A stretch of 64,000 nucleotides of DNA, from the NCBI GenBank assembly GCA_963722255.1, contig CAVRJO010000002.1, positions 480,001-544,000 of the forward strand, given 5' to 3'. Shown here piece after piece: positions 3,297 through 64,000 of this stretch (the first letter of the stretch is position 1; each line of letters opens with the position of its first letter). This DNA comes from Candidatus Babeliales bacterium (lineage in GTDB: Bacteria; Babelota; Babeliae; Babelales; JANWKD01). A program made the translations under genes and the position numbers. Under the pieces are notes generated by a model. The model worked only from the letters and a program-made list of their open reading frames with translations. It was not told the origin of the DNA and searched no databases.

Positions 3297-4172
3297 TTAT
3301 TTAAAATGATTTGTTCTTGCTTTATAAAGCGCTAAAGAATCGATAGCATCTAATAACTTTAGGTCTTTTGCCTCTTTTTTACTCTGCCAATATGCTTCAC
3401 AATGAATGCTAAGATTCGGAATGCAATAACCATTAAAGTTAAGCCAACTAAACAGTCCGGTTAATCCAACCACACTTCCCAAAAATACGTTTCCCGTTGC
3501 GCATAATGCAAGACTCCCACCGGTACAAATTCCCGAACCATAGGCACAAGTTGAATCACCAAACTTTACGCAGTTTTCCTTAAATGAAGATTTTTTGTTC
3601 CATTGGCGCATCCATTCTAAGAGCGTAATTCTTGATGCCATCCATAATTTAGGTGCATCAGAGAGCTCTTGGAAATTGTCATTAAAATAGTTTGTTTGCT
3701 CTTTTGATAATATTTTTTCAACAGCATCTGCCAAAGCATTATGATCAATAGCTACACGACTAAAAAGATCATACATTTCAAAAGATTTTTCACTAAACGC
3801 AGCTAATGCTGTATCAATAGTAGCATCTTCTTCTAAAGATCTATAAACATTTTCAATATCACTACTTCCATTTTCTTCTACAAATTCTGAATACTCATCA
3901 AATTCAAAATAATAACCATATAGATGCGGCACGTACTTATTCATACGCATTGGAAATTCAAGAGTCTTTTGATAAAGGCTTAATTGGCCATTGTGTTTTG
4001 AAAGATCAGCGCAACTTTTATGAATCACTACCATCGTAGCTATGTGATATACCAATAAGCCATAATTTTTTTGATTAAGAGGAACATCTTCAACAGCGAT
4101 CTCTTTTTCCATCGAAAAAAGTGAACAACTAAACGTCAACAATACAACACATACAAGTTTTTTCATATACAA
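3297..4172 (-). CDS. secreted/membrane hypothetical protein, paralog of 4342..5169
   Basis: Signal peptide ending LFS-ME; shares FNDNFQELxDAPKLWMASR and a C-terminal hydrophobic hairpin with its neighbour. Confidence 0.8.
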   Translation of the reverse strand: MYMKKLVCVVLLTFSCSLFSMEKEIAVEDVPLNQKNYGLLVYHIATMVVIHKSCADLSKHNGQLSLYQKTLEFPMRMNKYVPHLYGYYFEFDEYSEFVEENGSSDIENVYRSLEEDATIDTALAAFSEKSFEMYDLFSRVAIDHNALADAVEKILSKEQTNYFNDNFQELSDAPKLWMASRITLLEWMRQWNKKSSFKENCVKFGDSTCAYGSGICTGGSLALCATGNVFLGSVVGLTGLFSWLNFNGYCIPNLSIHCEAYWQSKKEAKDLKLLDAIDSLALYKARTNHFK

Positions 4173-4261
4173 CTCCTTCTAGCAAGCAGTGAAACACTCA
4201 AGACATGGTAATGAAAAAGTATACTAATTTCAAGTTTGGTCTATAGTCGACTCATCTTTTA

Positions 4262-4325
4262 GGATAAATGCCAATTCTATGCAATGTTTTATCAACCGAA
4301 GCAAAGTCAAAGTTATGACAATGAA
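4262..4325. repeat. 64-bp direct repeat of 5394..5457, a copy of the 3' end of the HAD gene
   Basis: ggataaatgccaattctatgcaatgttttatcaac... occurs twice with 4 mismatches. Confidence 0.9.
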
Positions 4326-4341
4326 ATCAATGATCAGTGGT

Positions 4342-5169
4342 TTAATTGTTAGTATAACAAGCTAAGGAATCTATTGCTGCTGATAATTTTAAGTCTCTCT
4401 CTTCTCTTTTATTCTGCCAATATTCTGCGCAATTAAAATTTAAATCCTGAATACAATGTCCTTTGAAATTCAAACATGTTGATATCCCCGTAAGCACCAT
4501 AATGGCTCCGAACAAAAAATTCCCACTCGTACATGATGCAATACCTAAACCAGTGCAAACTCCTGGACCATAGGACGTAGCATGATCACAAAACTCTGCA
4601 CTTTTTTCGAAGAATGGGTGTTCCTTATTAACATGCCGCATCCATTCAAGCAGTGCCATTCGAGAAGCCATCCAAAGCTTTGGTGCATCAGTTAACTCTT
4701 GGAAATTGTCATTAAAAAACTCTATTTGCTCTTTTGTTAACATCTCTTTCACAGACTCTTCTAACTGTTTATAATCAATATTTTTACCAGAATAAGCATC
4801 ACGCGCTTCAAACGAACGTTTACAATAGGTATCCAAAACTGCCTCTAAATCATTATCTTCTTCTAATGCTCGAGCTACAGACCTTATGTCACTTTGACCA
4901 TATTTTTTAATAAAACTTTTATACTCTAATTCAGGTAGAGGATGCTTGCACATACATGCCGGAAAAGTAATCACTTTCTGACAACACATAAAACTAACAT
5001 TTCTCATATAAAAATTTGATTTACTTGTATGAATAACCACCATTGCTGCTATATGGTGCGACAATACTTTATCAGTTTCATTAAGAAAAACTTCGGCCGA
5101 AACATCTTCTTCCATTGAAAATAATGATCCACTAAAAATCAATAGCAAACCAAATACCATTTTTTTCAT
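4342..5169 (-). CDS. secreted/membrane hypothetical protein, paralog of 3297..4172
   Basis: Signal peptide ending LFS-ME; long shared motifs with 3297..4172. Confidence 0.8.
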   Translation of the reverse strand: MKKMVFGLLLIFSGSLFSMEEDVSAEVFLNETDKVLSHHIAAMVVIHTSKSNFYMRNVSFMCCQKVITFPACMCKHPLPELEYKSFIKKYGQSDIRSVARALEEDNDLEAVLDTYCKRSFEARDAYSGKNIDYKQLEESVKEMLTKEQIEFFNDNFQELTDAPKLWMASRMALLEWMRHVNKEHPFFEKSAEFCDHATSYGPGVCTGLGIASCTSGNFLFGAIMVLTGISTCLNFKGHCIQDLNFNCAEYWQNKREERDLKLSAAIDSLACYTNN

Positions 5170-5268
5170 TATCTACCTCATTTGTATATAATTTTTCTAA
5201 GGCAATACTAAAAAAAATGTTTATTAATTGCAAGATTCTTGTAAATGAAAGGTTAAATTTTTATAAGC

Positions 5269-5310
5269 CTGGATTCCTACGCATTCACAAGGTGAATGCT
5301 CAGAATGACA
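5269..5310. repeat. partial palindromic element (right half of the GTCAT...ATGAC family)
   Basis: ctggattcc-gcattcac aag gtgaatgc-agaatgaca; resembles the elements at 18194, 20502 and 27889. Confidence 0.5.
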
Positions 5311-5386
5311 TACTTGATAATGTTCTGCCACTCAACAATTTTAATGCTCATTAAGTATGGTCAACTCAATCCATACAATTCACAAA

Positions 5387-9073: not shown

Positions 9074-9994
9074 ATGGGTGGGAAAATGAAGTATCGCTAT
9101 TTTTATTCTTTTCTGTTCCTCTTTTCATCTTCTTATACGCAACCCTTTGATGTAATACCTTATATCAGTCCTATTTTTTCTTTCATGGTAGGCACATTCA
9201 CCTATTTTTCTTTCATCACCGATCATTTTATCCCCGCTTCTAGGCAAGAACTTTATACTACTGAGCAAAGAATCACAAAAATGCATGAAAACAACAGATG
9301 CATTATGCAAGAATATGCTCAAAAAAATATTCGCGAGCAGTATGAGCAAACAAAAACGGAAGTTGAAGCTAAAATAGATAGTGCAATTGCTACCTGTTAT
9401 CAAAAATCACGGGCAATAAAAGAAGCATTAGATTCCACACAAACACTCATTATAAAAAAAATAGAAAGAAGTCATCGCATCAGAATGCAATCACTCAAAA
9501 ATAATCTTGCATCCTATGCAGATTCTACGCAAGAAGATATCACTGCGCTCATAAAAAAATTAACTCTTGCATATGAAAAACGAGAGAGTCAAATTCAACA
9601 CCAATGCACTCAAATTCTCAATCTACTGAGCAACTTTCAAAAAAAATTGCATCAAAAAACAATAACTACACAACGGATTATACAAAATACCACTCAAGAA
9701 CATACAAATCTGCTCACAAACAATCATGATCAAATAAAAAACAACTATGACCAGACTGCAGAAAAATGTAACCATTTTTTTATACAAACTTCTGAAAAAC
9801 TAGACGCCATCGAACGATTGTGTTGCATCCTTAAAGGAGTCATTGCAGAACAAAAACAAAAAAATATTGCACTCTATAAGCAAATTCTTGCATTAAAAAA
9901 ACTACGAAAAAATGATTCACTTCTCTCTATTAAAAATGCATTTGGTTCAAATAAATCTTTAAAGAATTATAGTAACTTGGATTACAAACAATGA
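9074..9994 (+). CDS. membrane-anchored coiled-coil protein
   Basis: Two N-terminal hydrophobic segments followed by a long Q/K/E-rich helical region. Confidence 0.7.
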   Translation: MGGKMKYRYFYSFLFLFSSSYTQPFDVIPYISPIFSFMVGTFTYFSFITDHFIPASRQELYTTEQRITKMHENNRCIMQEYAQKNIREQYEQTKTEVEAKIDSAIATCYQKSRAIKEALDSTQTLIIKKIERSHRIRMQSLKNNLASYADSTQEDITALIKKLTLAYEKRESQIQHQCTQILNLLSNFQKKLHQKTITTQRIIQNTTQEHTNLLTNNHDQIKNNYDQTAEKCNHFFIQTSEKLDAIERLCCILKGVIAEQKQKNIALYKQILALKKLRKNDSLLSIKNAFGSNKSLKNYSNLDYKQ

Positions 9995-10932
9995 TTTCAG
10001 TTTTTTGTAAAAACTCAATGAGAACAACAATCTTCCTCATAGTAAGCACTCTATTCTTTCAAATAAACTGCATGGAAAGAAATCAACTCATCCTTTTAGT
10101 AATAAAACAAATTCTTGCCTCTATTAAACCGATTCAAGAACCAATAAGTAAATCATTTTTACAACAATCGCTAGAAACGACCAAAGATATTTCTTTAAAA
10201 CTTTTTATCGCATGTTATAAACATCCAAAGATCATTATTGGCGCTACAACTTTGACCCTTCTTTTAATTTCGCTCAAAAAATCTTCTCTTTTGCCGATTA
10301 CCATACATAATTTAAAAAAATTTGAGCAGAAATGCGCAAAAAAAGCACAAAATCAGATAAGAAAATTTATGGAAAACACTGCGAAATCTTCTCAAGAAGC
10401 TTCTCGGCAACTTACTACCTCAATTGATGCATCACAAACACAATTGTTTGTGCTTAACGATGAACTTGAACAAAACCAACAAGTTCTCATGCAAATGCCT
10501 GAAGAAATTGCACAATCAGTTGCTTTATACAATGTTCAAGAAGAAAAAAACCACGATGAACTTTTTTCACATGCACATAGACAAAGAACGACACAGCTTA
10601 ATACGTTAGAAACGCATGCCAGGAATCTTATGGATAATGACGAGATTATTGTTACTGACTTTTTAAAAAAATTTCTTACTGAAACGACTCAATTAGATAA
10701 TTCATTGGATTTTAACATTGAAACCATTGTGAACTCATTAGCGCAAGAAACGGCACTACTTCATCAGACTATGCATCAAAACAATCACCAAGAAAACCTA
10801 CAGCTTACTCGCCTGAATTCAACGGTAGATAATCAGCATAATAATTTGGCCGAACGTGTTGACTCTCTAATTATTCTTCTTACAGGATTAGTTGATACAT
10901 CTGAAGAGTTGGTGTATGAAAAGACATTATGA
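9991..10932 (+). CDS. secreted/membrane coiled-coil protein
   Basis: Signal peptide ending INC-ME, HPK followed by a hydrophobic helix, helical tail; overlaps the upstream stop (ATGA). Confidence 0.7.
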   Translation: MISVFCKNSMRTTIFLIVSTLFFQINCMERNQLILLVIKQILASIKPIQEPISKSFLQQSLETTKDISLKLFIACYKHPKIIIGATTLTLLLISLKKSSLLPITIHNLKKFEQKCAKKAQNQIRKFMENTAKSSQEASRQLTTSIDASQTQLFVLNDELEQNQQVLMQMPEEIAQSVALYNVQEEKNHDELFSHAHRQRTTQLNTLETHARNLMDNDEIIVTDFLKKFLTETTQLDNSLDFNIETIVNSLAQETALLHQTMHQNNHQENLQLTRLNSTVDNQHNNLAERVDSLIILLTGLVDTSEELVYEKTL

Positions 10933-11058: not shown

Positions 11059-12057
11059 ATGACTTACAAACGTTCATCAATCTTTTTTACCGCATTATTG
11101 TTTTTTTTGTTGCAGCACCAATCTGTACAAACAATGGAAAATCAATCACAACCTTCACATTCAAATAAATTGAGTATCTTCAATCCATTATCCTGGGTTT
11201 ATGGATTATACTCTAGCTTTTATTATAATTTTGGATGGATGACAGATGCTGCTTGTGAAGAAAAAATAACAGCATCATTTAATAAATTGGAGAAATTCAT
11301 TCAAGTGATGTTTGCAGATATCCTTGATGGAAATCATAGCTTTGCTCAGCAAATTTTAGAAGATGGTAAAAACTTACATGACATACTCAATTCTACCACA
11401 ATAAATGTCCAAGATTTAAAACTCTTTTTTTTAGGAAAAATACAATCATTAGAGAAAGAACGACAAATAACAAATGCAATATTTGAAAAAACTATTAATG
11501 ATTTAAGAAAAACACTACAAAGGTTTTCAAAAACTCGCCAGACTGTAAGTAACCTTGAGAAGCAATTTTCAATTTATAGCCAACTAACTCAAGAAGAAAT
11601 TGAACAAAATAATCAAAGTTTAAGCTCACTTGGAGAAAAGTACAAAGATAAAATTAAAAGTTTATATCGTCTTCAAGAAAAACATCACAAAGAACACCAA
11701 ATCCAAGTATCACAACTTCAGTCTCAACAACAAGACTTTTATCAGCAAACAACAGAAAGTCTTAAAGCTGTCCAACAAACAACGCAACAATGCCAAGAAG
11801 AATGCGAAAAGAAACAAGATAAGGGAACTCAAGAAGGAGAAACTATTCTTGAGTTATTACAAAAAATACGAGAAAATGATGTTGCTTTACAGAAAGTATT
11901 AAACATACTGCCTAATTCAACTAACCACGTTCAAGCAACTCCCAAAAAGTCAAAGCAAAAATCTCTTAACACCTCAGTCTTTCCTAACCGATTAAGAAAA
12001 GAATTTAAAGTTTTTGCTCCACCCATAGGTACTTCCATATATGGACGAGATATATAA
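11059..12057 (+). CDS. secreted coiled-coil protein
   Basis: Signal peptide ending VQT-ME, aromatic patch, Q-rich heptad region. Confidence 0.7.
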   Translation: MTYKRSSIFFTALLFFLLQHQSVQTMENQSQPSHSNKLSIFNPLSWVYGLYSSFYYNFGWMTDAACEEKITASFNKLEKFIQVMFADILDGNHSFAQQILEDGKNLHDILNSTTINVQDLKLFFLGKIQSLEKERQITNAIFEKTINDLRKTLQRFSKTRQTVSNLEKQFSIYSQLTQEEIEQNNQSLSSLGEKYKDKIKSLYRLQEKHHKEHQIQVSQLQSQQQDFYQQTTESLKAVQQTTQQCQEECEKKQDKGTQEGETILELLQKIRENDVALQKVLNILPNSTNHVQATPKKSKQKSLNTSVFPNRLRKEFKVFAPPIGTSIYGRDI

Positions 12058-12093: not shown

Positions 12094-13074
12094 ATGATTC
12101 AAGGAACACAAAGCATGAGAATTTTATTGTTATCATTATTCTTTACACAAGCTTGGTGTATGGAAAGCTCACAGCTAGTTATTGTTAAATTTGAAGATTT
12201 AAAAGAACTTGTTCAGCAGTGCAGCAAAGAAGCTGTTGCTGCAGCAATAAAGAAAGAATCCCCTTCTTTTTTTTCATCAACTTTTAAATTCATTGCAAAT
12301 CATCCAAAAGAACTGTGGGCAACAGTAGCATATGGTGCTATAGTTGCTACTTTCCTGGGATTTTCAAGAAGTAAATTTTTCTGGAGCACCCCAAAAAAAT
12401 TCGATGCTTTATTAGAAGCAAAAGAAACTGAACTTGTGAACGAGCTCTATGATATAAAAAATCTTATTGAAGCATCCCGTGCAAATGTAGGTTCAGCATA
12501 CCTCAATACTATGAACGGTCTTAATGCTGGTATAGCCGCCATCGATAACTCCCTGGGAGAATCTAAAAGAGAAGTGGAAGATGTTTATAGCAAAGCTCTT
12601 GCTCGTGAACTCAATCGCCGTTTAGTGCTTATTCAAAAAGCTACCATTACCTCACGTTTTACTCAAAACGGCATAAATACCCTTGATTCATCGCTTTTTT
12701 CTTTACAGTGCTCCGCTCTGCAAGAACAAGAAAAAATCAAGGATGAACTTGCGCAACAAGGAGAAGCAATCGCCGCTCTTGATGAAGACACTGAAAAGGA
12801 ATTTGATACAACAACCAACACGATGACCTCTAATCATGATGAGGAATCACGATCATTACATTCCTTGGGCAATCAAATGTCAGGAAATAATGAAGATATT
12901 CGAGAAACACTTCTTCACGTTGAGATTACTACAAGGGTTCTTGCAAAAAAACTTCCTACAGTTGATGATACCAATGAAGAAAATAAAGAAAATATCCGGG
13001 AAGCATTTAAAATTATTGAAAACCAAGCTCACCTCATTGCTCAACTTCAGGGCTTAGTGCAGGAAACTCAGTAG
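12094..13074 (+). CDS. secreted/membrane coiled-coil protein
   Basis: Signal peptide ending AWC-ME, HPK followed by a hydrophobic helix, helical tail. Confidence 0.7.
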   Translation: MIQGTQSMRILLLSLFFTQAWCMESSQLVIVKFEDLKELVQQCSKEAVAAAIKKESPSFFSSTFKFIANHPKELWATVAYGAIVATFLGFSRSKFFWSTPKKFDALLEAKETELVNELYDIKNLIEASRANVGSAYLNTMNGLNAGIAAIDNSLGESKREVEDVYSKALARELNRRLVLIQKATITSRFTQNGINTLDSSLFSLQCSALQEQEKIKDELAQQGEAIAALDEDTEKEFDTTTNTMTSNHDEESRSLHSLGNQMSGNNEDIRETLLHVEITTRVLAKKLPTVDDTNEENKENIREAFKIIENQAHLIAQLQGLVQETQ

Positions 13075-15124: not shown

Positions 15125-15556
15125 TTATTGAGAATGTGCCTTCTTCTGTTTATTATATTTCTTTCGTATAGTTTCATAGCCCATCTTCGCGTCTTCGTCT
15201 TCAAGAATATGGTTATACATCTTGCTTCGATCTATTTCTTTTCGTGGACCTACTGTATACATCAGTTTACCATACCAAGTACATTTTTTTCCTCTACACT
15301 TTGTACGAGAAAAATAGATTTCCTTAATCTCTTCACTATTGCGAACCATCAAAGAATAGGCATATATTTTTATTCCGCTTTCTTTATTTTTTTCAACTTT
15401 TCTTTTTATAGTGCAATCAGTTTCATTAATTAATCTCTTCAATTGAATTTTATCTATTGTTTTTTTTGGATATCTATCTTGCAAATCTTCTTCCATACAG
15501 TAAAAACTGGTATTACCGATAAGAAAACTCAAAAATAAGATAGTAAATAATCTCAT
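15125..15556 (-). CDS. secreted basic hypothetical protein
   Basis: Signal peptide ending FYC-ME; Lys-rich. Confidence 0.7.
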   Translation of the reverse strand: MRLFTILFLSFLIGNTSFYCMEEDLQDRYPKKTIDKIQLKRLINETDCTIKRKVEKNKESGIKIYAYSLMVRNSEEIKEIYFSRTKCRGKKCTWYGKLMYTVGPRKEIDRSKMYNHILEDEDAKMGYETIRKKYNKQKKAHSQ

Positions 15557-16619: not shown

Positions 16620-17969
16620 CTAATTTTGTTTTTTAAGTCTTAAATCTAAATCAGCTAAGGAATAATTAGTTACCTTTGAAGAATAGTCAACTAAGCAGAC
16701 ATTCGTATCATAAAACCATACTGATTTTGGACTTTCTATTCCTGTTAGCAAGACTTTACCAACTTTTCGCTCTTTCGGATCATGGCAATTCATAAAATTT
16801 AAATAAAGAAGTTGAAAACTCGTAACAAGAATAATTTGATGAGAGTCGCAAGGATTAACGGCAAAATTCTTTAAAAATATTGGATAAGTTTTTTCTTTAT
16901 TACTAATTTTTTGTTGTTCTGAACGAATGCTACTGCTCTCTTCATCTAATCCAAAACTAAATAATCTTCCAAATTCAGAAAGACCCAATAAGATCTTTGG
17001 CGTTATAAAACTAAGTTTTTTGATTGTATCACCTCTATGATCTTCATGAAATGATCCAAAACCAATTCGTCTTAGTGCTGTCTCATGTTCATGATTCATT
17101 TTTCGTTTTTTACGTTTAGGAGAACAGGGCAGTTCATCGCAATTTTTTACCTCAAACAGTGATATGCCCGCTTGATCGGCAATTGCAAAACGATTTTTAG
17201 TTCTACAAAGAGCTAATGCTAAAATAGAACCTACTATCCTTGTGGATATAAAATCAAATTTATTAGTATCTTTTTGAGAAAAATTATGACTTTCATAGAA
17301 TTCTTTGCAATCAGAAGTAAACCGTCCTACATAATATTCATATACCGCTTGTTGATTTTCAACAAGTTGAAGATCATCTTTTTCTAACCCTTCTTCATGT
17401 GCATAATCTTCTTCACCACATGATAGATTTTCTTCTGATTTTGAATTTCCAGCAATGACAAATACGTTATTTTTATTAGGACCATCAAAAAAAGGCTCTG
17501 TAATTTCAAGATTAGCTGATGTCACAAAGTGCATTTTTTGAATATCATCTTCAATTACATATTTCGTAGCACTATAAACCCTAAGAAGGGGCTTATCATC
17601 GCTATACCAACATTGTATGGGAAAAAGGAAATGCCTTCTGTCTCTTGTATTTACAAATCCAGATTCAGGGTTTAAATTAATCGATGGAGCCCATTCATGG
17701 ATACTAAATAATGTAATATCATGTAAAACATCTCTATTCTCCTCACGCGGCCCAAATTGAAAACATGATTTTCTATCCGAACTAAACTCAATTTCAGCAT
17801 CAGAATTTGTCGCTAATTCTATAATATGAACTAAGAGCTCATCTGGAACCATATCGGCAATGTTTATGAACTCTTCTTCTTTATCAACTTCAGATTGTTC
17901 CATGGAATAAAGATCGTTTTGCATCATCATTGCTACATTGAATAGTAAAAAAATGATCTTTTTATTCAT
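16620..17969 (-). CDS. secreted protein with F-box-like N-terminus, beta-rich body and NLS-like motif
   Basis: Signal peptide ending LYS-ME; IADMVPDELLVHIIEL; PKRKKRK. Confidence 0.65.
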   Translation of the reverse strand: MNKKIIFLLFNVAMMMQNDLYSMEQSEVDKEEEFINIADMVPDELLVHIIELATNSDAEIEFSSDRKSCFQFGPREENRDVLHDITLFSIHEWAPSINLNPESGFVNTRDRRHFLFPIQCWYSDDKPLLRVYSATKYVIEDDIQKMHFVTSANLEITEPFFDGPNKNNVFVIAGNSKSEENLSCGEEDYAHEEGLEKDDLQLVENQQAVYEYYVGRFTSDCKEFYESHNFSQKDTNKFDFISTRIVGSILALALCRTKNRFAIADQAGISLFEVKNCDELPCSPKRKKRKMNHEHETALRRIGFGSFHEDHRGDTIKKLSFITPKILLGLSEFGRLFSFGLDEESSSIRSEQQKISNKEKTYPIFLKNFAVNPCDSHQIILVTSFQLLYLNFMNCHDPKERKVGKVLLTGIESPKSVWFYDTNVCLVDYSSKVTNYSLADLDLRLKKQN

Positions 17970-18485: not shown

Positions 18486-19036
18486 AAATCCCCATAGATT
18501 CGCAAAAATATAAAATATTCTGTACTATAAATAGTAATTAACGGAAAGCTATCTATTTTCAGGGGTATTCTATGAATATATATTTATTTCTAATGGCGTT
18601 ATTTATTACGCCGCAACTATTATTTTCTAATCATGAGAATAATAATAAAAAATTTTCTCCATCCCAACTACATTCGCAAAAATTTAATCCTTCATCTTCA
18701 GAGTTCATTAATATAGAAAATAAAATTCTTCCTAATAAAGACAAGGATAAATTACAAGCTTTAAAAAACAAATTAAATACTAAATTGCTCAAAAATGAGC
18801 AATTGCAAAATAACCATGAAGGGCGGTTTAAAAAATTATTTGCTTTGTCACTGGCTAGCGCTGTAGTTAGAAGTTTAATCCCCTTCTTTGGCGAAGGTCT
18901 GATTATGACTCCATTTATCGCTATTGCTGACGGACTTTGTTTTTTTAGTTTTTGTGAAGGATGGGCATCTTTATCCAAAGCAAAGGATTGCGCTAATAAT
19001 GTTTGCATTACTCAAACGAAGCTTCAATCAGTTGAT
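18486..19036 (+). repeat. about 550-bp direct repeat, copy 1 (copy 2 at 24110..24659)
   Basis: Near-identical upstream region and coding sequence. Confidence 0.95.
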
Positions 19037-19102
19037 ATGTCACTACAAGCCATTGAATCAAATTTAGAGGATATAAAAAAAGAAAAATCTAATCAACAAT
19101 AG
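18572..19102 (+). CDS. secreted/membrane protein with a hydrophobic hairpin flanked by coiled coils
   Basis: Signal peptide, bilobed hydrophobic segment; duplicated at 24195. Confidence 0.75.
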   Translation: MNIYLFLMALFITPQLLFSNHENNNKKFSPSQLHSQKFNPSSSEFINIENKILPNKDKDKLQALKNKLNTKLLKNEQLQNNHEGRFKKLFALSLASAVVRSLIPFFGEGLIMTPFIAIADGLCFFSFCEGWASLSKAKDCANNVCITQTKLQSVDMSLQAIESNLEDIKKEKSNQQ

Positions 19103-20248: not shown

Positions 20249-20501
20249 TATAGAAGCCTTAAGAAAGATATAATTATTTTTAGTATTTAAATATAACAAG
20301 ATGATAACAATTATGAGCTGGTTGCTCAATAGTATTATTTAATGATAATCATCAATACAAAAATATTTATTGCTTCTCTTGAAGATATTTTTTCTCTATG
20401 AAAATATGCAAGGTAAACCGCCTGCGCTAAAAACTTATATAACTCGAATTCGATAATTTAAATTACAAGTCTACAAGCAAGAATTGTATGAACATCAATA
20501 A

Positions 20502-30543: not shown

Positions 30544-30616
30544 TTTTTATTAACTTTCAATTGAAGTTTTATCTCTTTTACTTATAAAATCTCTGGTTAT
30601 CCAAGGAGATTTGGCA

Positions 30617-47642: not shown

Positions 47643-48014
47643 TTAACTAATGATACACAATGATTGTTCTTCTGCGCCATTATTTTGAGCTGTCTCAAAA
47701 GGCAATGCTGACAACGTTTCGTCAATTGAACTAAGAAAATAACAGTAAGTCACTGTTTTATTTGAAGATTTATAAGAGAGTGTCACTTCTTGCTTATATG
47801 GATCCAAGACTGCTTTTGCACCTGACTTTTTATTAATAAGTTCTTTTGATTCTTTTGACTCTTCTGCATCTTGTATAGCTTTTTTTACCATTTCTGATTC
47901 ACCAATCCATGGCAAAATAAGTTCATAAAGCATAAGTGCTTTAGCCTGATACATACTATAGGTATAACTTGTTGCCATACACAAACTTATTAAAAAATAT
48001 ACTGCCTTCTTCAT
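47643..48014 (-). CDS. small secreted protein ending in a CaaX motif (CIIS)
   Basis: Signal peptide; PW...AI..A..S.E family motif; C-terminus SLCIIS. Confidence 0.75.
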   Translation of the reverse strand: MKKAVYFLISLCMATSYTYSMYQAKALMLYELILPWIGESEMVKKAIQDAEESKESKELINKKSGAKAVLDPYKQEVTLSYKSSNKTVTYCYFLSSIDETLSALPFETAQNNGAEEQSLCIIS

Positions 48015-48156
48015 ACAGATTCCTTTTCACAAAAGTTTATATTAAAAAAATCTAATCATATTAAGGAGGTAATTAACAAGAATTATTCTTTTTCTTGTCT
48101 GCAGCAATACTCTTTGATACTATCTTTACTATAATAATTTACAGAAGGATAATTTA

Positions 48157-48528
48157 TTGTGTATAAAAAATAGCCAATTAATCTTTATTTTATTGTTAGG
48201 AGCATCATTATTTTCATCTCAAAAAATCAAATGCATGCATCCACAAAGTTTATATGATATAAGAATTTTTATTCCATGGGGGTGGCAAATTGAAGGGCAG
48301 CAGGAAGAAATACAAGAGGCAATTGAACAAGCAAAAAAATCAGAAAATGGAAAATATAAAATCACCTATCATAATTATTCTGCTGAGTTCGATGATTATA
48401 CTCAATCGGTTGAATTACACTACCATGATTTATATGCATCAATGGGCTATGATGAATTTTTGCAACAGATTGATTTAAAAGCAACTAAAGCTCAAAAATC
48501 AAAAAGTAAATGCTGCTCTTTACAATAG
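48157..48528 (+). CDS. small secreted protein ending in a CaaX motif (CSLQ)
   Basis: Paralog of its neighbours; C-terminus KSKSKCCSLQ. Confidence 0.75.
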   Translation: MCIKNSQLIFILLLGASLFSSQKIKCMHPQSLYDIRIFIPWGWQIEGQQEEIQEAIEQAKKSENGKYKITYHNYSAEFDDYTQSVELHYHDLYASMGYDEFLQQIDLKATKAQKSKSKCCSLQ

Positions 48529-48610
48529 TTTTTTTACTTTTTTTAGCATTTCTTGCTTATAACTCTCCTTTTAGATAGTATCATTGCATCTATAATAAAT
48601 CTTAAGGAGA

Positions 48611-48997
48611 TTGTCCATGAATGCGAAATGTACTCTTGTTCTATTTTTTTTACTCTTACCGTTATCTCAGAATATAATTTGTATGGAATCATCAGAAGCA
48701 ATGAAAGCTATATTACTTACCATGCCTTGGGCTGACAAACACGAAATGGTGTTAAATGCCATTGAAGATGCAAAAAGTTCCGAAGATGGTATTAAAAAAA
48801 TTTCATGTGAAGGATTTGATGCGGTGTTTAACACAAAAAATGACATCGTTTCTTTATATTATAACGCTGAAAATCTAAGTGAAAGTATGGGATGCTCATT
48901 TTTTTTAAAATCTATAGGTATTAAAGAAGAACAAAAAACACCTCCAACCACTCCTCAACAAAATAACAATTGGTGGCCTTCTTGCACATTACAATAG
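48611..48997 (+). CDS. small secreted protein ending in a CaaX motif (CTLQ)
   Basis: Paralog of its neighbours; C-terminus WWPSCTLQ. Confidence 0.75.
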   Translation: MSMNAKCTLVLFFLLLPLSQNIICMESSEAMKAILLTMPWADKHEMVLNAIEDAKSSEDGIKKISCEGFDAVFNTKNDIVSLYYNAENLSESMGCSFFLKSIGIKEEQKTPPTTPQQNNNWWPSCTLQ

Positions 48998-52869: not shown

Positions 52870-54319
52870 TGTCAACGCAACGTGAAAAGTTCCGGTATTT
52901 AGCAAAGTAAAAAGTTCCTAACATTAAAGCGCCTCCACGGCCGGCGCGACCGGCTTCAACCTACTCTCACTAGGGGGCAACCCGCCTGCCCAACGTTGGC
53001 TATTTTTTGAAGGCTTTCTTGGTATACAGTCAGATATTTTTTTCTCCTGAATTTGGGGGGTTGGTCGTTGGTAGATTTCGCTAAAAGAAAGTTCTGTTTT
53101 TCGAATCCACAGTTTTATGGTTCCATTTAAATGTACTTTAACAACAATGGTATTTTTTGGAAAAATGATTGTTTTTTGCTGATCGCTTAATTGAAAAATC
53201 TGTTTTTGGTAGGTAATAGTAAAATCATTCGTAAGAATACGAGTCTCTTGTGTGCTAAATATATCGTTTAAATCAAATGATTGAGCGCTAGCATGGGCAT
53301 CGCCTTCTTGGGCAGCAGGAACTTGAAATGCAGCATTATGCTTTGCAATATAATTGCTTGTTCGCAGATAATTATTTGCTTGATCTATTGATGATATCCC
53401 AGCAAGTCTCATTTCCTTAATAAGGCGATCTTGAAGGGTTTGATTGCAACGTTCAACGCGGCCCTTTGCCTGAGGACTATTGGCATGTATAACATCAATT
53501 CCCAAATCTTTACAAGCGCGCTCCCATTGGGTCTTTTTAATATTTTCTTGATTACTCAAATTAACATGGAAAACAGAACCGTGGTCAGTATAAAAAGTTT
53601 GAGGAATCCCATATTTTTCAACGTAATTTTTAGTTGCGGTCATTAAAGCATGCATCGATTCAGAAGGGGCAAACTCAAGCCAAAGGATTTGGCCAGTAGC
53701 ATCGTCAATAAAAACAAGTAAGGTACATACCCCAGCACGCCCTTCAAACCAGTCATGTGGAGAGCCATCAAGCTGAATCATTATGCCAAACATACGCCTT
53801 CTTTCTCGTCGCTTGCGATGCTTGCTGCGCTGTTTTTTAGGTTGCCATATTCCTGCCTTAATCATGACCTTTCTAACAGCTTCTCGACTTATCTTTATTC
53901 CATGCAACTCTTTAAGTTTTTCAGCCGCAAAGGTTGGCCCAAAGCCTTGCCAATCGCTTTCTAACAATGAGATTAACAATCGTTCTTCTCCTTGATCCCA
54001 TCTATTTGGGCTTTCTTTTCCCCTATTGCCATGTACAAGGCCAAAGTCGTCAGATTCACAATATCTTCCATATTTTTCTCTGACCCACCGCTCTGTAAAT
54101 CTCAGACGGGCTGCAGCCTCTGCCTGTGTCATTTTTCCTTCTTTAACCTGAACAAACACTTTTGCCTGTTCTCGTTCTTTGCGATTCATGGTAATATATT
54201 CCATATAAGTTCCGTTGCATTTTTAGAGTTTTTCTTTTTGTTTACAAGATTAAGTTTACCCTAAAAACCGGAACTTTTTACTTTGCGCTATAATAGGAAC
54301 TTATCACTTTGCGCTAACA
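52870..54319 (-). mobile_element. IS1202-family (formerly ISNCY) element with a 17-bp target duplication
   Basis: TGT...ACA ends, two internal gcaaagt.a.aagttcc-like repeats per end; gaaaaaacagccaaatc at 52853-52869 and 54320-54336. Confidence 0.88.
52924..54204 (-). CDS. IS1202/ISNCY DDE transposase
   Basis: N-terminal HTH; QLDGSPHDWFEGR, YTDHGSVF, ANSPQAKGRVER, TLQDRL. Confidence 0.92.
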   Translation of the reverse strand: MEYITMNRKEREQAKVFVQVKEGKMTQAEAAARLRFTERWVREKYGRYCESDDFGLVHGNRGKESPNRWDQGEERLLISLLESDWQGFGPTFAAEKLKELHGIKISREAVRKVMIKAGIWQPKKQRSKHRKRRERRRMFGIMIQLDGSPHDWFEGRAGVCTLLVFIDDATGQILWLEFAPSESMHALMTATKNYVEKYGIPQTFYTDHGSVFHVNLSNQENIKKTQWERACKDLGIDVIHANSPQAKGRVERCNQTLQDRLIKEMRLAGISSIDQANNYLRTSNYIAKHNAAFQVPAAQEGDAHASAQSFDLNDIFSTQETRILTNDFTITYQKQIFQLSDQQKTIIFPKNTIVVKVHLNGTIKLWIRKTELSFSEIYQRPTPQIQEKKISDCIPRKPSKNSQRWAGGLPPSESRLKPVAPAVEAL

Positions 54320-55079: not shown

Positions 55080-55388
55080 TTATTTTTTAATTATATTCAA
55101 AATATATTTATTATTCAATGTATCCCATTCATTCTTAGCCTCTTCTCCCTTCAATTCCCATTCTCTTCCCTCTTGACCATACACAAAAACCAATTTATAA
55201 CCGGTGTACATAGCTTCCTCCTTCTCACCTTCTTTCTTTTGGACACAAATATCGGTATAGGTTCCATCAATCTCTTCGACCAATTGTATCAATATTGTAC
55301 CCTCTAGTTCCCATTTTCTCACGCGCATAGAATAAAGAGAAGCAACAAAAAACAGGCTTATCATCAATAAAAAAAATTGTTTCATCAT
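55080..55388 (-). CDS. small secreted hypothetical protein
   Basis: Signal peptide ending LYS-M. Confidence 0.6.
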   Translation of the reverse strand: MMKQFFLLMISLFFVASLYSMRVRKWELEGTILIQLVEEIDGTYTDICVQKKEGEKEEAMYTGYKLVFVYGQEGREWELKGEEAKNEWDTLNNKYILNIIKK

Positions 55389-55394: not shown

Positions 55395-55865
55395 TTAATT
55401 TTTACTATTTTTGTATTTTTGTAACGATTGCCAAATGTGCCATGCACGACTTCCCTCTCGAGTAAGACATGTACCATGCTTTTTACAATGTATAGTTAGT
55501 AATCCAAAAGTTGTTTTTTCAGAGGGATCGCTAACAGTATCTTTAAGTAATTTTTTGATAACAATACATACTTCATCGTGAAAAAAATTATTAAAGGTAA
55601 TTTCTTGATTCAGATCTTTATGGCAAATAATTAAAACATCTGCATTCTGAAAACATTGATTAAGAGAATATTCTCGTCGCTCTGCTAATCCTTGTTCAAA
55701 ATCTTTTATTTTTTGGTCTTCTGAACTCATGCATAAAGAATTATTGACAAAAAATGGTATCATCATTAAAAATTGCAACATAACTATTAACACCATACTA
55801 TTTTCCTTTATTTCGAAATTCTCTATAACCCAATTTAGATTAAAAAAATTTAGCCTTAGGATCAA
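55395..55865 (-). CDS. small secreted hypothetical protein (true start probably 55796)
   Basis: Signal peptide ending SLC-M; C-terminal G..A...W..L resembles the neighbour at 55080. Confidence 0.55.
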   Translation of the reverse strand: MILRLNFFNLNWVIENFEIKENSMVLIVMLQFLMMIPFFVNNSLCMSSEDQKIKDFEQGLAERREYSLNQCFQNADVLIICHKDLNQEITFNNFFHDEVCIVIKKLLKDTVSDPSEKTTFGLLTIHCKKHGTCLTREGSRAWHIWQSLQKYKNSKN

Positions 55866-57676: not shown

Positions 57677-58654
57677 TTATACGGTGTTATAAGTAAAACG
57701 TTTTTCTTTTGGCAATTGAGTATCCGTGCAATAACGATCACGATACCAATCAATAGTTTTTTGTATACCTTCATTGAGTGAAGTTTTATGGTTCCACCCT
57801 AATGCATGTAAGCGAGTTACATCTAATAATTTTCGTGGTGTCCCATTTGGCAGAGCGGAATTAAAAATAAGTTTTCCTGAATATCCTACATGCTCTTTAA
57901 TAAGAAGAGCCAATTCAAAAATAGAAATATCAAGACCGGTGCCAATATTAATTGGCAAACTATTTTCATAGTTTTGCATCAAAAAAATAAGTGCATCAGC
58001 AAGATCATCAACATACAAAAATTCACGTTTCGGAGTTCCATCACCCCATAATTCAAGTGATGAGATAGAATTTTCTTGTGCATCTACCATCTTTGCAATC
58101 ATTCCAGGCACTACATGAGAGTTGATGAAATCAAAATTATCTTCAGGACCATACAAATTTGTCGGCATACATGAAATAAAACGTGTTTTATATTGTCGAT
58201 TATATGATTGACACAAACCAATACCTGCTATTTTTGCTAGCGCATAAGGCTCATTAGTTTTCTCAAGTGGCCCTGTCATTAAATATTCTTCCTTAATGGG
58301 CTGCTGACAATCACGCGGATATATACATGATGAACCTAAAAATAAGAGCTTTTTTACACCAAACATATAAGAAGCATGTATAACATTAGATTCAATCATA
58401 AGATTATCATATAAAAATTCTGCAGGATAATCGTTATTAGCTTTGATGCCACCAACCTTTGCTGCGGCTAAAAAAACATATTCAGGTCGCTCAGATTCGA
58501 AAAAATGGTTAACAGTTCCTTGATTACGCAGATCGAGTTCTTGAAAATTTTTACTAATGAGATTGGTGAATCCACCTTTATGTAATGCTCGCTTAAGCCC
58601 TGATCCAACTAACCCGGTATGACCTGCAAGATAAATTTTTGAATCTTTATTCAT
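57677..58654 (-). CDS. fcl: GDP-L-fucose synthase
   Basis: AGHTGLVGS, AAAKVGGI.AN, LGSSCIYP, YALAK, MPTNLYGP, REFLYVDD, GTPRK. Confidence 0.95.
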   Translation of the reverse strand: MNKDSKIYLAGHTGLVGSGLKRALHKGGFTNLISKNFQELDLRNQGTVNHFFESERPEYVFLAAAKVGGIKANNDYPAEFLYDNLMIESNVIHASYMFGVKKLLFLGSSCIYPRDCQQPIKEEYLMTGPLEKTNEPYALAKIAGIGLCQSYNRQYKTRFISCMPTNLYGPEDNFDFINSHVVPGMIAKMVDAQENSISSLELWGDGTPKREFLYVDDLADALIFLMQNYENSLPINIGTGLDISIFELALLIKEHVGYSGKLIFNSALPNGTPRKLLDVTRLHALGWNHKTSLNEGIQKTIDWYRDRYCTDTQLPKEKRFTYNTV

Positions 58655-59776
58655 GATTTTTCCTTTTGTACTATAGTTTCTGCATAGATATAGGGAACAA
58701 TGTGCTCTTCATCAATATGATAGTTAGAATCATTACATAATAATTGCATATCATAATCAACCATTATTTTTACCAATGTTTCAAAATCAACTTTTGGTTG
58801 CCATCCAAGCATAAGACGTGCTTTTTGAGCATCACCCAATAAATAATCAACTTCCGTTGGCCTAAAATATTGCTTATCAATAATAATGAGTGGTTTTTTA
58901 GTTCTTGCATGAACTCCTCGTTCCTCAACTCCTGAACCTATCCATGTAATTGGTATCCCGGTACACAAAAATGCAGCTTCCACAAATTCTCTAACCGAAT
59001 ATGATTGACCGGTTGCTATAACAAAATCATCAGCTTTCTCTTGTTGCAACATTAGCCACATTGCTTCAACATAATCCTTGGCGTAACCCCAATCTCGACT
59101 GCGCATCAAGATTTCCTAAATAGATACTTTCTTGCAATCCTGCTTTAATTCGTGCGACAGCACGTGTTATTTTTCTCGTAACAAATGTTTCGCCACGCAA
59201 GGGTGATTCATGATTAAAAAGAATCCCATTACACGCATACATACCATATGCTTCACGATAATTTACCGTAATCCAATAGGCATACAGTTTTGCAACAGCA
59301 TAAGGAGAACGTGGGTAAAATGGTGTTGTTTCACTTTGTGGATGTGCTTGCACTTTGCCATAGAGTTCACTTGTTGATGCTTGATAAAATCTTGTTTTTT
59401 TAGTTAGACCTAATAATCGAATAGCTTCTAAAATACGTAAGGTACCCAGAGCATCGGCATTTGCTGTATACTCCGGCGTTTCAAAAGAAACGCGAACATG
59501 ACTTTGTGCTGCTAAATTATAAATTTCATCAGGTTGCACTTCCTGAATAATTCTAATTAAATTGGTACTATCGGTTACATCACCATAGTGCAAAATAAAG
59601 TTGTGATTATCATACTCATGTAGATCTTGATAAATATGATCTATACGAGAAGTGTTAAATGAAGATGATCGCCTTTTAATACCATGTACTTGGTAACCCT
59701 TATTGAGCAAAAACTCAGATAAATATGCTCCATCCTGACCGGTAACACCTGTTATAAGCGCCTTCTTAATCTTCAT
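58651..59776 (-). pseudogene. gmd: GDP-mannose 4,6-dehydratase, frameshifted near 59098
   Basis: [25 protein letters not shown] and NHESP in one frame; [10 protein letters not shown] onward in another; one extra base in GCG CAG t CGA GAT TGG. Confidence 0.9.
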
Positions 59777-59974
59777 TACTAAATACCTTTGTACTACATC
59801 TAATAAAACTTTTTTCAAATATTTAATCGTTATACTGCCATTCGTTTGCACAATACACAATTCAGAAAGAACAATCAAGAAGCCTCACTCTAATAGCTAA
59901 CTATTGAAAATTAATAATAACCGGTTTTATGCTACAAAGATGAGTTCAAATACTATATTAAGAGGAGCTTTTTT

Positions 59975-61882: not shown

Positions 61883-61912
61883 TCTGAATAATTTAACGCG
61901 AATAATCGAGGT

Positions 61913-61958
61913 TGTCATCCCAAGCGAACGCGCGGCAACCCAGTTATAAAGACTTCTC
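61913..61958. repeat. left half of the GTCAT palindromic element
   Basis: agcgaacgcgcggcaacccagttataaagacttctc is identical to 18204-18239. Confidence 0.8.
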
Positions 61959-62042
61959 CTTTCCTATCTCCTTTACAAAAAATTCCATTCCTTTATTCTG
62001 ATTTCTGGTTTTGATTCAACATGGTAACAAAAAGGTCCCATT

Positions 62043-62516
62043 ATGAATGAACGAATCACTGCTCGAGTTGTTCTTGTAAATGATGAACACAAAGTTCTTC
62101 TTTTAAAAATGCATTTTGACGGAATGAGTTATTGGCTTACACCTGGCGGCAAAATAGATGAAGGTGAAACGCCGTTGGAAGCTGCTCAAAGAGAATTATT
62201 TGAAGAGACCGGCATTAACAATGTTACACTTACCAATCCTCATACCTGGTATCTTGAGCATATTGGCATGTGCCATGGCGTTGAAACATTATTTAAAGAG
62301 CATATTTTTTTAGCATATACTCAAGAAACAAAAGTAAACTTTGATAATCATATTGATTATGAGCGTAATGCAATTACTTCTTATGCCTGGTGGGATATTG
62401 ATGAATTTAAAAATAAACAAGAAATAGTGCGCCCACAGGGATTTATTGATGAACTTGCACTTATTACCTCATTTGATATCAAATCACCTCAACGAAAACC
62501 AATCTTTATACAATAA
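62043..62516 (+). CDS. NUDIX hydrolase
   Basis: PGGKIDEGETPLEAAQRELFEETG Nudix box. Confidence 0.92.
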   Translation: MNERITARVVLVNDEHKVLLLKMHFDGMSYWLTPGGKIDEGETPLEAAQRELFEETGINNVTLTNPHTWYLEHIGMCHGVETLFKEHIFLAYTQETKVNFDNHIDYERNAITSYAWWDIDEFKNKQEIVRPQGFIDELALITSFDIKSPQRKPIFIQ

Positions 62517-62662
62517 TATATATATAACATTGACTAAATTAATACCCATGCTACAATTATTATTAATAAATAATTTTAATTAATTTCCTAATTGAAAAAA
62601 AAATATGATAAAAAAATTAATAACATCTTTTTTATTTTTAGTCACCTTATCATCAGTAAGCA

Positions 62663-63836
62663 CTTAACACCTGACAATTTTAAAAGTAAGCCATAAAGGG
62701 GGAATTTCCAGCAATGACAGTGCGGCTTTCAGAAGAAAGCGAATACCTTTTTTGAAAAAGGAAGTTAAACTGCGCGCAGTTTTTTTTAGAACGTTTTGCA
62801 CGCTCAAGATCTGGCTGCATGCCGGTGGAAACAGCCCAATAATAAGCAACACTTAAAACAAGAATAAGACGTTCTATTCGTTCTGCATGGCGTAACTGAG
62901 TAGTAGTGATATCAAAGCCTCTTGATTTAAAGTCTGAGAACATAGGCTCAATAGACCATCGCATGCCATAATCAAGAACTTTATATTCGGTAGGAACACA
63001 ATCCATAGCAATGATCCAAGGTTCATCTTTGCCTTCATCTTGTAGTGCACCAATGTTAGTTGTAACGCCAGAATTATTCAACTGAACATTGCACAACGAT
63101 GTTTGTTTTAATCTGATAAGCTCGCCAGAACTCAATTCCCCACCATGATGAAAAAGAATAAGATTACCTTTCAAGCGAATGCGGTATCGCCATTTGAAAC
63201 TTTGACATAATTGGATAAGCGCAGGATTCCCATAGAATCTATCCGCCATTAAAATAATTTTTGCATAGCTTGGTATGTTAGCAAACACCGCCTCAAGCAG
63301 TTGTTTTTGAATGGTAAAGCCAATTTCTCCTTGCGTTTTAATTACTCGCCATGCAACAGGAATAGCACGTTCTCCAATTCGCAATGAAACCATAAGACAT
63401 TCAAATTCTTTATTGATTTGACTTTGATCCATTGATAAAACAATGATCTGGCCATTTGCATGTATAAGTTCTATTAATTCAGGGATAAAGCCTTCTAGTA
63501 ACGTATCACAATCAATTTTATCATTGGCAAGCCAACGATTAATATAGCGATAACGCTCCTCATCACTTTTGACTTTTCTTGGCAGCACTGTTGCTAATTC
63601 TGATGTGTTAACATTGCGACATGTTATTACTGATGCTGCTAAATCTGCCAAACCTATCCTTTGTGGCTTGCTTAAACGTATATCTCTCTCTGCTAAATCT
63701 TCTTCGATAACTTTTGCCAAGTGTATTATTGATCCACCCATCATTCTCACCTTATTTACTCCTTTGTTTTTCACAAAGTATACACTTTTTGCAAAACAGA
63801 GTCTTTGATGAGTGTTAAATTTTGTCAGGTGTTAAG
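62663..63836 (-). mobile_element. IS4-family insertion sequence
   Basis: Inverted ends cttaacacctgacaa / ttgtcaggtgttaag; 9-bp duplication cagtaagca at 62654-62662 and 63837-63845. Confidence 0.92.
62680..63774 (-). CDS. IS4-family DDE transposase, with a probable frameshift near the C-terminus
   Basis: MDQS, MADRFYG, YGMRWSIEPMFSDFKSRGF; A8 run at 62780-62787 with an alternative tail in ORF 62664..62852. Confidence 0.88.
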   Translation of the reverse strand: MKNKGVNKVRMMGGSIIHLAKVIEEDLAERDIRLSKPQRIGLADLAASVITCRNVNTSELATVLPRKVKSDEERYRYINRWLANDKIDCDTLLEGFIPELIELIHANGQIIVLSMDQSQINKEFECLMVSLRIGERAIPVAWRVIKTQGEIGFTIQKQLLEAVFANIPSYAKIILMADRFYGNPALIQLCQSFKWRYRIRLKGNLILFHHGGELSSGELIRLKQTSLCNVQLNNSGVTTNIGALQDEGKDEPWIIAMDCVPTEYKVLDYGMRWSIEPMFSDFKSRGFDITTTQLRHAERIERLILVLSVAYYWAVSTGMQPDLERAKRSKKNCAQFNFLFQKRYSLSSESRTVIAGNSPFMAYF

Positions 63837-64000
63837 CAGTAAGCATGGAGAGGCTTTTACTTGAGAAACAAAAAATCCAAAATAAAATAGAAAACCAAAA
63901 CTTCTTAACCAATCTAAATCTTTTTGAGCCTACAAATCTTAGCCAGTATGAAGCACAACTGAATAATGAGCTAACTTCTCGTTGGAGACGTATATACCAT

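Follow-up and report, generated by a model that had tools for sequence, protein, structure and literature searches.

The window analysed here is the whole 64,000-nucleotide stretch G000:C2:480001-544000 (contig CAVRJO010000002.1) of a Candidatus Babeliales bacterium, a member of the Dependentiae, whose genome comprises two contigs (1.618 Mb, 34% G+C). Among the 88 best-matching SufS homologues, the three that bear organism names all come from Dependentiae or Babeliales. Dependentiae are widespread protist parasites, mostly uncultured, and the question addressed is how their hundreds of proteins with signal peptides are divided between the envelope and the host. The element under study is a Met, usually followed by Glu, placed directly after the signal peptide of exported proteins; this Met and the residue after it are referred to here as the tag. 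Overlap removal reduced the 2075 open reading frames (ORFs) of at least 80 aa in the whole genome to 1591, and about 150 of these, or roughly one protein in ten, have a classical Sec/signal-peptidase-I leader and then Met immediately. Signal peptides and cut sites were predicted with a purpose-built weight matrix, not with SignalP; the matrix uses positions -15 to -1 only (+1 and +2 excluded), was built leave-one-out, and was applied with a score of at least 10 as the signal-peptide cut-off.

The original prediction had listed 17 leader-Met junctions in the window, and 16 of them were found, by ORF translation and coordinates, at the genes named; the remaining one, SVS-ME, is absent from all six frames. 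In what follows the slash marks the junction, and the coordinates given first span the leader and the Met codon. On the minus strand, ORF 3297-4172 (4110-4172, with the leader at 4113-4172 and the Met codon at 4110-4112) reads ...SCSLFS/MEKEIA (matrix score 18.5), and its paralogue, ORF 4342-5169 (5113-5169, Met codon 5113-5115), reads ...SGSLFS/MEEDVS (17.9). Three junctions follow on the plus strand. ORF 9991-10932 (9991-10074, Met codon 10072-10074; ...FFQINC/MERNQL, score 12.6) has no Pfam match; ORF 11059-12057 (11059-11136, Met codon 11134-11136; ...HQSVQT/MENQSQ) has its best matrix site 3 residues upstream of the Met and was thus counted as untagged; and ORF 12094-13074 (12094-12162, Met codon 12160-12162) reads ...FTQAWC/MESSQL (11.7).

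The next six junctions are all on the minus strand. ORF 15125-15556 (15494-15556, Met codon 15494-15496; ...NTSFYC/MEEDLQ, score 14.9) is followed by ORF 16620-17969 (17901-17969, Met codon 17901-17903; MNKKIIFLLFNVAMMMQNDLYS/MEQSEV), which has no Pfam match and, with a matrix score below 6, fell outside the counted set. The leucine-rich repeat (LRR) protein of ORF 19130-20329 (20189-20299, Met codon 20189-20191; ...SNSILVA/MERQNK, score 15.1) matches LRR_8 at E=1.5e-4, under the curated cut-off. In ORF 25426-26529 (26395-26529, Met codon 26395-26397; ...MSILALNS/MEGDCK) the matrix site lies 6 residues upstream of the Met, so that it too was counted as untagged, and F-box-like_2 appears at E=0.17 only. 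The 959-aa ORF 36531-39410 (39342-39410, Met codon 39342-39344; ...TVHAYG/MQHKPV, score 8.0) has a sub-threshold C-terminal Ntox35 match (E=0.016), and ORF 39422-41095 (40946-41014, Met codon 40946-40948; ...MNQSFC/MEQDGN, score 17.8) encodes an AAA ATPase (AAA, E=2.4e-20).

Three small neighbours end in CaaX-like C-termini: ORF 47643-48014 on the minus strand (47952-48014, Met codon 47952-47954; ...TSYTYS/MYQAKA, C-terminus ...CIIS, score 12.9), and, on the plus strand, ORF 48157-48528 (48157-48237, Met codon 48235-48237; ...SQKIKC/MHPQSL, ...CSLQ, 14.1) and ORF 48611-48997 (48611-48685, Met codon 48683-48685; ...SQNIIC/MESSEA, ...CTLQ, 12.6). The last two, both on the minus strand, are ORF 55080-55388 (55326-55388, Met codon 55326-55328; ...VASLYS/MRVRKW, score 20.0) and ORF 55395-55865 (55728-55796, Met codon 55728-55730; ...VNNSLC/MSSEDQ, 11.7). 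As a contrast, the exported GH3 glycosidase at 43364-45073 (minus strand; Glyco_hydro_3, E=2.5e-77) has an untagged leader, MKICLVLILFFSICFLKP/IMPPYL. Of the domain labels first given to these carriers, AAA is solid and the CaaX-like C-termini are visible, while LRR is weak and F-box and toxin-like exist only as sub-threshold matches.

The observation of Met after the leader is confirmed and holds genome-wide. Among the 430 signal peptides predicted by the matrix, +1 is Met in 148 (34%), compared with 1.7% Met in protein bodies; by pair, the 148 tags are ME 74, MN 19, MQ 14, MK 9 and MD 9, so that Met-Glu alone follows 17% of the 430. The ME dipeptide occurs 155 times at residues 15-34 of the 1591 ORFs, with about 29 expected from its body frequency, and a hydrophobic ten-residue core precedes 151 of the 213 ME at positions 14-59 (71%); such a core stands before 50% of MN, 42% of MQ and 18-37% of most other Met-X pairs. 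We also used a looser screen, with a basic n-region as selection criterion and a Met preceding the first charged residue after the core as the measure. It found 134 Met-preceded cases among 683 signal-peptide-like N-termini of this genome, 101 of them ME, four times the next pair. The same script was run on 78 outgroup loci, from many other phyla, around homologues of the GDP-fucose synthase of the window. Only 2 of 99 signal-peptide-like ORFs (ME 1) fitted the pattern in the 37 loci with G+C below 0.40 (631 kb) and 0 of 83 in the 41 loci at or above 0.40 (619 kb), 2/182 combined; as had been expected of a true tag, +1 Met is far commoner here than in AT-rich bacteria of other phyla. A 28-position leader profile (A1), built from 17 leaders and counted at E<=0.1, gave 47 matches in this genome, and 1 and 2 in two genomes of other phyla, G131 (0.8 Mb) and G132 (4.8 Mb), respectively.

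The residue pattern identifies the tagged leaders as true Sec signal peptides whose signal-peptidase-I site immediately precedes the conserved Met. In a logo of 150 sites, position -3 is L 32, I 15, S 12, A 10 and V 8% (L/I/S/A/V/T/C together 89%), -2 tolerates bulky residues (F, Y, L, N, Q), and -1 is A 36, S 23, G 17 and C 14% (together 90%); the c-region is rich in Ser and Asn, and L/I/F/V dominate -14 to -8. The matrix, built without +1 and +2, chooses the ME site in 111 of the 150, so both logo and matrix bear out, by the -3/-1 pattern, the claim that the predicted cut precedes the Met. The leaders have a median length of 22 aa (5-95% range 18-35), their second codon positions show coding periodicity (T 67-71%, A 2-3%), and the genome encodes two LepB signal peptidases I (PF10502, E=1e-34 and 1e-32). 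If they are cut there, some 150 exported proteins would mature to Met-Glu or, less often, Met-Asn, Met-Gln or Met-Asp N-termini. A lipoprotein (signal peptidase II) signal was rejected, as the lipobox L-[AS]-[GA]-C is not matched: Cys, where present, is at -1 and not the first mature residue (14% of sites), the residues before it are bulky (F/Y/N/I/K) rather than of the small lipobox type, and A/S/G fill -1 in the other 76%. Separately, Cys at -1, which to our knowledge is unusual for signal peptidase I sites, reaches 7 of 16 in the window.

The tag Met does not behave as a start codon. A Shine-Dalgarno (SD)-like four-mer stands before the leader start in 74/148 tagged genes and 138/282 untagged exported genes, and before the tag ATG in 2/148, below the background of 488/5864 (8%) at internal ATGs; translation thus does not, in the ordinary way, begin at the tag Met, and the suggestion that it is an alternative start giving a cytoplasmic isoform fails. 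At +2, the Glu codons GAA and GAG number 120:30, as in general genome usage (18410:4819), indicating that the constraint acts on the protein; with this codon usage, and no base conserved outside the codons, a nucleotide-level motif was discarded. A shared leader cassette or a single expanded family was likewise discarded. In agreement with the description of the carriers as mostly unrelated, the 148 tagged proteins form 114 BLASTP families, 100 of them singletons, with non-homologous leaders, and only 20 of 10,878 leader pairs are similar at the DNA level, 11 of these being paralogues. The seven database homologues of the AAA protein (ORF 39422-41095), all metagenomic, comprise four with leader and ME, two that start at ME and one with neither. 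The public gene calls of P0002 and P0005 begin at the tag Met-Glu, so that any leader is missing. Secretome estimates for the phylum may thus be too low, and the tag rule can correct gene starts where the leader was lost by annotation from the tag Met.

Pfam was scanned for the predicted exported proteins lying whole within one 20-kb locus or the window (C2:80001-544000 and C1:1-800000). These were 126 tagged proteins, including 11 with Met-Glu/Asp/Asn/Gln at most 8 residues from the matrix site, and 193 untagged ones; at least 6 genes with ME 1-6 residues past the matrix site were left in the untagged group, which makes the comparison conservative. The cut-off was E<=1e-3 for part of the set (43 tagged) and E<=1e-5 for the rest (83 tagged), and no Pfam match was found in 35/43 and 60/83 tagged proteins, respectively. 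The tagged matches are ankyrin (9), WD40 or other beta-propellers (7, one with BTB), C2H2 zinc fingers (2), Skp1_POZ (1), DnaJ (2), GNAT (2), LRR, AAA, an RNase III-like domain, the papain-like DUF1796 and a CPT-type kinase, with one weak coiled-coil match. On the untagged side stand BamA (Omp85/POTRA), OmpH/Skp, Pal/OmpA-family proteins, Amidase_3 and SpoIID; the peptidases S41 (Ctp), M23, M48 and M50; a solute-binding protein, DsbD, thioredoxin, two FtsW, FtsX, FtsK and an FtsH-like protein; and ExbB, TrkH, H+-PPase, PAP2, Band 7 and others. Exported glycosidases and hydrolases, namely GH1, GH3, S9 and S33 hydrolases and PLD, which are classical type II cargo types, are untagged as well.

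With classes assigned manually from Pfam names, envelope or membrane housekeeping families account for 0/126 tagged and 32/193 untagged proteins (Fisher 3.9e-8), and eukaryote-like interaction domains for 23/126 and 8/193 (Fisher 6e-5). At least three transmembrane-like segments occur in 0/148 tagged and 26/282 untagged proteins, so the tagged proteins are soluble; no enrichment of C-terminal tail anchors was seen among them (8/148 vs 16/282). CaaX-like C-termini, meaning a Cys at -4 and then two residues that are mostly aliphatic, were found in 10/148 tagged, 0/256 untagged exported and 4/751 leaderless proteins (Fisher 3.6e-5), and Cys at the control offsets -3, -5 and -6 in 3-4/148 tagged ones. 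Of the 20 CaaX-like ORFs of the genome, 13 carry leader and Met, among them the three small neighbours of the window (47643-48997). CaaX prenylation is a eukaryotic cytosolic reaction that other intracellular bacteria exploit, and the CaaX-like C-termini would be an independent pointer to the host cytosol. The claim that the tag marks an effector-like class is upheld by these three comparisons: statistically, they show the Met-X pair to be a class mark on soluble, fast-evolving orphan or eukaryote-like proteins and not on resident envelope proteins.

The second residue of the tag is restricted. At +2 stand E in 74 tags (x8.0 relative to protein bodies), N in 19 (x2.3), Q in 14 (x2.2), and D and K in 9 each, and E/D/N/Q together make up 116/148 (78%), where 21% would be expected. 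These four pairs are the N-termini on which the eukaryotic N-terminal acetyltransferase NatB acts, and the proposed link of the tag to the NatB class holds to this extent. Met aminopeptidase removes Met before small residues, and Met before a hydrophobic residue is a degron; +2 residues permitting Met removal (A, C, G, P, S, T, V) are found in 10/148 tags vs 35% in protein bodies and hydrophobic ones in 6/148 vs 36%, a five- to nine-fold depletion. Met and the acidic residue are also coupled, as the first charged residue is acidic in 110 of 134 Met-preceded cases of the loose screen and in 254 of 549 untagged leaders, which equals body composition. The Sec system disfavours basic residues just past the cut and acidic ones there favour export, yet since untagged leaders have no acidic bias, the Glu is not simply a general Sec charge habit. 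Apart from one relative, G057, no general acidic bias after all leaders was seen.

In homologues at 22-37% identity that align to the N-terminus, leader and Met stay at the junction, as in SAGLSS/MEVSKG, HDSFS/MEAKDL, PGLYA/MEQEQS and KFSHA/MEAPQ, the last being retained in the G001 homologue of ORF 3297-4172; a few homologues switch the pair to Met-Lys, Met-Asn or Met-His. The Met is, as far as such alignments tell, under purifying selection. Relatives were sampled at phylum level in 60 other genomes, all listed in the same order, at about 1 Mb each. In 200-kb samples of G001, G003 and G004 (family f1), G014 (f11), G020 (f17) and G022 (f19), 99 of 527 signal-peptide-like N-termini were Met-preceded, the top pair being ME in the f1 and f11 genomes and MD in G020 and G022; by the matrix, +1 Met ranged from 12/48 to 24/52 predicted signal peptides in these six. 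On the other hand, 88-100-kb samples of G058 (f12; 1/41), G057 (f6; 3/56), G061 (f13; 0/30) and G062 (f3; 0/28) were at background, 4/155 when pooled. The leader profile served as a proxy in 121 genomes, after validation on five genomes of known tag state (75, 58, 28, 13 and 3 matches), although it under-scores the Asp type of tag. It was high in f1, f11, most of f19, single genomes in f5, f7 and f14 and part of f3, and 0-3 in f6, f12, f13, f4, f2, f18, f21 and f16.

The tag is thus widespread but not phylum-wide among the genomes searched: the description "lineage-wide" stands for several Dependentiae families, and does not for the four sampled families at background or the eight in which the proxy is near zero. 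This patchy spread lets tag-positive and tag-negative families be compared in searches for the machinery that reads the tag, which would be a natural experiment if the tag does mark host-directed effectors. Tag-negative G057 (C1:100001-200000, L170-L174) is different: for 38/53 of its leaders the first charged residue beyond them is an acidic one, vs a share of about 0.4-0.5 elsewhere, and the position before this residue is mostly Ser, Ala, Gly or Gln (SE, SD, AE, AD). This junction habit may be a sister rule, a small residue plus an acidic one.

As to the surroundings of the tagged genes, three transposase-like ORFs (41630-42667, 52924-54204 and 62680-63774, minus strand), recognised by eye, lie among them, and a mobile-element-rich island may be the setting of the tagged genes in the window. 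Near-identical small exported genes with untagged leaders (MNIYLFLMALFI...), at 18572-19102 and 24195-24680 on the plus strand, flank a 900-aa membrane protein (20680-23382); the C-terminus of the second copy differs. Three tandem leaderless paralogues of 149-153 aa (M(I)KNFNIEVISKK...) occupy 29550-31066 on the minus strand. At 31618-35767 (plus strand) a 256-aa ORF overlaps a 1151-aa ORF, both with repeated Cys-rich W-x-C...C-P-x-C units, and in the longer one these are followed by regions that look helicase-like and methyltransferase-like by eye from the translation. The GDP-mannose 4,6-dehydratase at 58651-59878 (minus strand) appears to be broken, probably through a frameshift, into ORFs 58651-59109 and 59066-59878, which overlap, and an intact copy is present on the other contig (L210:2420-3535; GDP_Man_Dehyd, E=6.6e-152). 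An Rfam scan of the window gave no match.

Taken together, the original prediction of a lineage-wide effector tag is partly supported: a tag of an effector-like class fits the counts, an alternative start is rejected, and "lineage-wide" applies only in part. Our tentative preference is that the tag is read on the host side, as mimicry of a host-cytosol N-terminus. Removal of the signal peptide would leave a protein that reaches the host cytosol with whatever residue follows the cut exposed, and it would be this neo-N-terminus, not the leader, that matters. A retained Met would make a safe, native-looking N-terminus provided that +2 is neither small nor hydrophobic, and, with the Sec dislike of basic residues past the cut, Glu, Asp, Asn and Gln, that is, the NatB class, would be left. 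Among untagged proteins, 164/282 (58%) have +1 residues that are destabilising by the Arg/N-degron rule, and N-degron control in the host cytosol is reportedly known for a bacterial protein, listeriolysin O. The CaaX link and the untagged classical type II cargo types weigh for this host-side reading.

Several points weigh against it. DOT1, Vps62, NCA2, one ankyrin protein and one AAA protein are exported without the tag, and whole Dependentiae families rich in signal peptides lack it. Lineages also differ in the +2 residue that they prefer, with Glu favoured in f1 and f11 and Asp in G020 and G022, a difference that is easier to explain with a co-evolving bacterial receptor than with conserved host machinery. 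Small +1 residues (A/S/T/G) are also stable under the Arg/N-degron rule, so that avoidance of N-degrons alone does not force Met, and NatB acts mainly on nascent chains, its action on an imported protein being only putative. The housekeeping and eukaryote-like classes come from Pfam names and the signal peptides from our own matrix instead of SignalP, and cleavage at the predicted bond, passage out of the periplasm, entry into the host cytosol and acetylation are all putative.

The explanation that survives next best, possible if somewhat doubtful, is that the tag is a second-step export or sorting signal: the Met-acidic N-terminus would be recognised in the periplasm and would route some 150 unrelated cargoes over the outer or the host vacuolar membrane. 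A secretin or type II-like apparatus and vesicle loading are conceivable routes, with untagged proteins staying resident; the Bacteroidetes lipoprotein export signal is a functional parallel. The partition of tagged and untagged proteins fits such a signal equally well, the lineage-specific preference for Glu or Asp fits a co-evolving receptor, and a linear tag would account for the handling of so many unrelated cargoes, which probably have little structure. Two secretins in tandem and two ATPases of the type II secretion kind are encoded in the genome, and a type II system is the sole secretion system detected in Babela, according to the part of that genome paper available to us (PMC4378268). 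Against a second-step signal, the families that are free of the tag are still rich in signal peptides, no receptor has been identified in our analysis, and the classical type II cargo types go without the tag. Known type II signals, moreover, are conformational.

Two candidate correlates were also rejected, and both count against second-step export. Secretin number, by our reading of the tables for 121 genomes, is 2-3 in 120 of them and does not follow the tag proxy; and LepB copies, which could have supplied a dedicated second peptidase, range from 1 to 4 across 31 genomes without tracking the tag, tag-positive G014 having one. As for the secretins themselves, two large ones (about 800-950 aa) are present here (G000:C1:854358-859728) and in Dependentiae genomes generally (120/121), about 5 kb apart where both are listed, and some families have a third, shorter secretin of about 500-600 aa. 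Overall we favour host-side mimicry over second-step export, while giving the two nearly equal weight. On either account, by NatB-class mimicry or by a linear export address, several Dependentiae families might label the effectors that they direct to the host by a new N-terminus of two residues, Met and then Glu, Asp, Asn or Gln; we put this forward with caution.

It is improbable, in our judgement, that the tag is a processing rule only, by which signal peptidase I or Sec handles fast-evolving leaders best with a Met-acidic pair at P1'-P2' and no address is meant. Acidic residues past the cut do favour Sec export, and the tag and the predicted cut site always coincide. Phylum-specific +1 residues also exist, as in the Bacteroidetes Q-rule described in the accessible part of PMC5837995. 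However, the tag is absent from the housekeeping proteins that this peptidase also cleaves (0/126 vs 32/193), untagged leaders have no acidic bias, and the association with CaaX and eukaryote-like domains would be left unexplained. We see an equally slim chance that the tag is an evolutionary relic, in which genes that were cytoplasmic or acquired picked up leaders, through 5' extension or capture, and kept the old start codon without function. In its favour, every junction has ATG as its codon, 2/7 AAA homologues are started at ME by gene callers, and AT-rich upstream DNA would readily encode hydrophobic peptides; but the Met is kept at 22-37% identity, +2 is limited to E/N/Q/D in 78%, the cut site coincides exactly with the Met, the leaders are non-homologous, and a relic would be expected to decay, not to be confined to one functional class. 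Least of all do we credit a dual start or mis-annotation, with the internal ATG as a start or the true start and the leader produced only by extending the ORF: the annotation of some database homologues does begin at ME, but the SD-like motif is at 2/148 tag ATGs, compared with 8% for random internal ATGs and 74/148 for the upstream starts, the leaders have n-, h- and c-regions, the -3/-1 rule and coding periodicity, and AT-rich outgroup DNA gave 2/99 in the same pipeline.

A simple rule that separates effector-like cargo from residents is a testable predictor, with about 150 candidates in this genome, and it lets the tuning of a signal-peptidase-exposed N-terminus to eukaryotic N-terminal rules be tested directly in a bacterium. 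Our literature search found no account of a Met rule after Dependentiae signal peptides, although the supplementary tables of the genome papers could bear on the point. In the portions available to us, these papers mention no more than numerous signal peptides and a type II system (PMC6561590, PMC4378268).

Compared with the ordinary Sec/signal-peptidase-I class, the tagged leaders have the same build, in which a positively charged n-region is followed by a hydrophobic core and a polar c-region with small residues at -3 and -1, as well as an encoded LepB, and differ in that +1 is Met in 34% and Met-Glu follows in 17%, whereas other phyla gave 2/182 in the same pipeline. In 116/148 tags the pair is that of NatB-class N-termini, but here it would arise by post-translational cleavage in a bacterium and not on a eukaryotic ribosome, and stabilisation or acetylation is putative.

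Among published +1 rules specific to a lineage, the one closest to the tag is the Bacteroidetes Q-rule, in which, as far as the available part of the report describes it, Gln at +1 of most signal peptidase I substrates of the phylum is cyclised to pyroglutamate by a known cyclase (PMC5837995). Both concern a lineage-specific residue at the first mature position of Sec/signal-peptidase-I substrates; the Q-rule covers most substrates and has its follow-up enzyme, whereas the present tag, Met plus an acidic or amide residue, covers an effector-like subclass only. Membership in the Q-rule itself was rejected, as +1 Gln is found in only 23/430 vs Met in 148/430. We know of no follow-up enzyme for the Met tag. 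Host-prenylated CaaX effectors of Legionella are exported by a type IV system and have no Sec leader; CaaX-like C-termini on exported proteins are common to both (13/20 such ORFs are tagged here), but the Dependentiae proteins carry a Sec leader and the Met tag.

In the Plasmodium PEXEL, RxLxE/Q/D downstream of the leader is cut after Leu by an aspartic protease, and the ER-ESCAPE tripeptide is said to be a neo-N-terminal sorting motif read by Surf4. A PEXEL-type element was rejected here, as the logo has no R or L conservation at +3 to +14 or -5 to -1. As in these systems, proteolysis would expose a new N-terminus that has Glu, Gln or Asp in second place and would mark the further destination of the cargo; on the other hand, the present tag is in a bacterium, follows an ordinary signal-peptidase cut and involves neither an RxL element nor an aspartic protease, so the likeness is functional only and the sorting role putative. 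If the proposal is true, the tag would be a bacterial counterpart of PEXEL-type tags, and the effectors of an uncultured phylum of parasites could be listed from sequence by a rule one line long.

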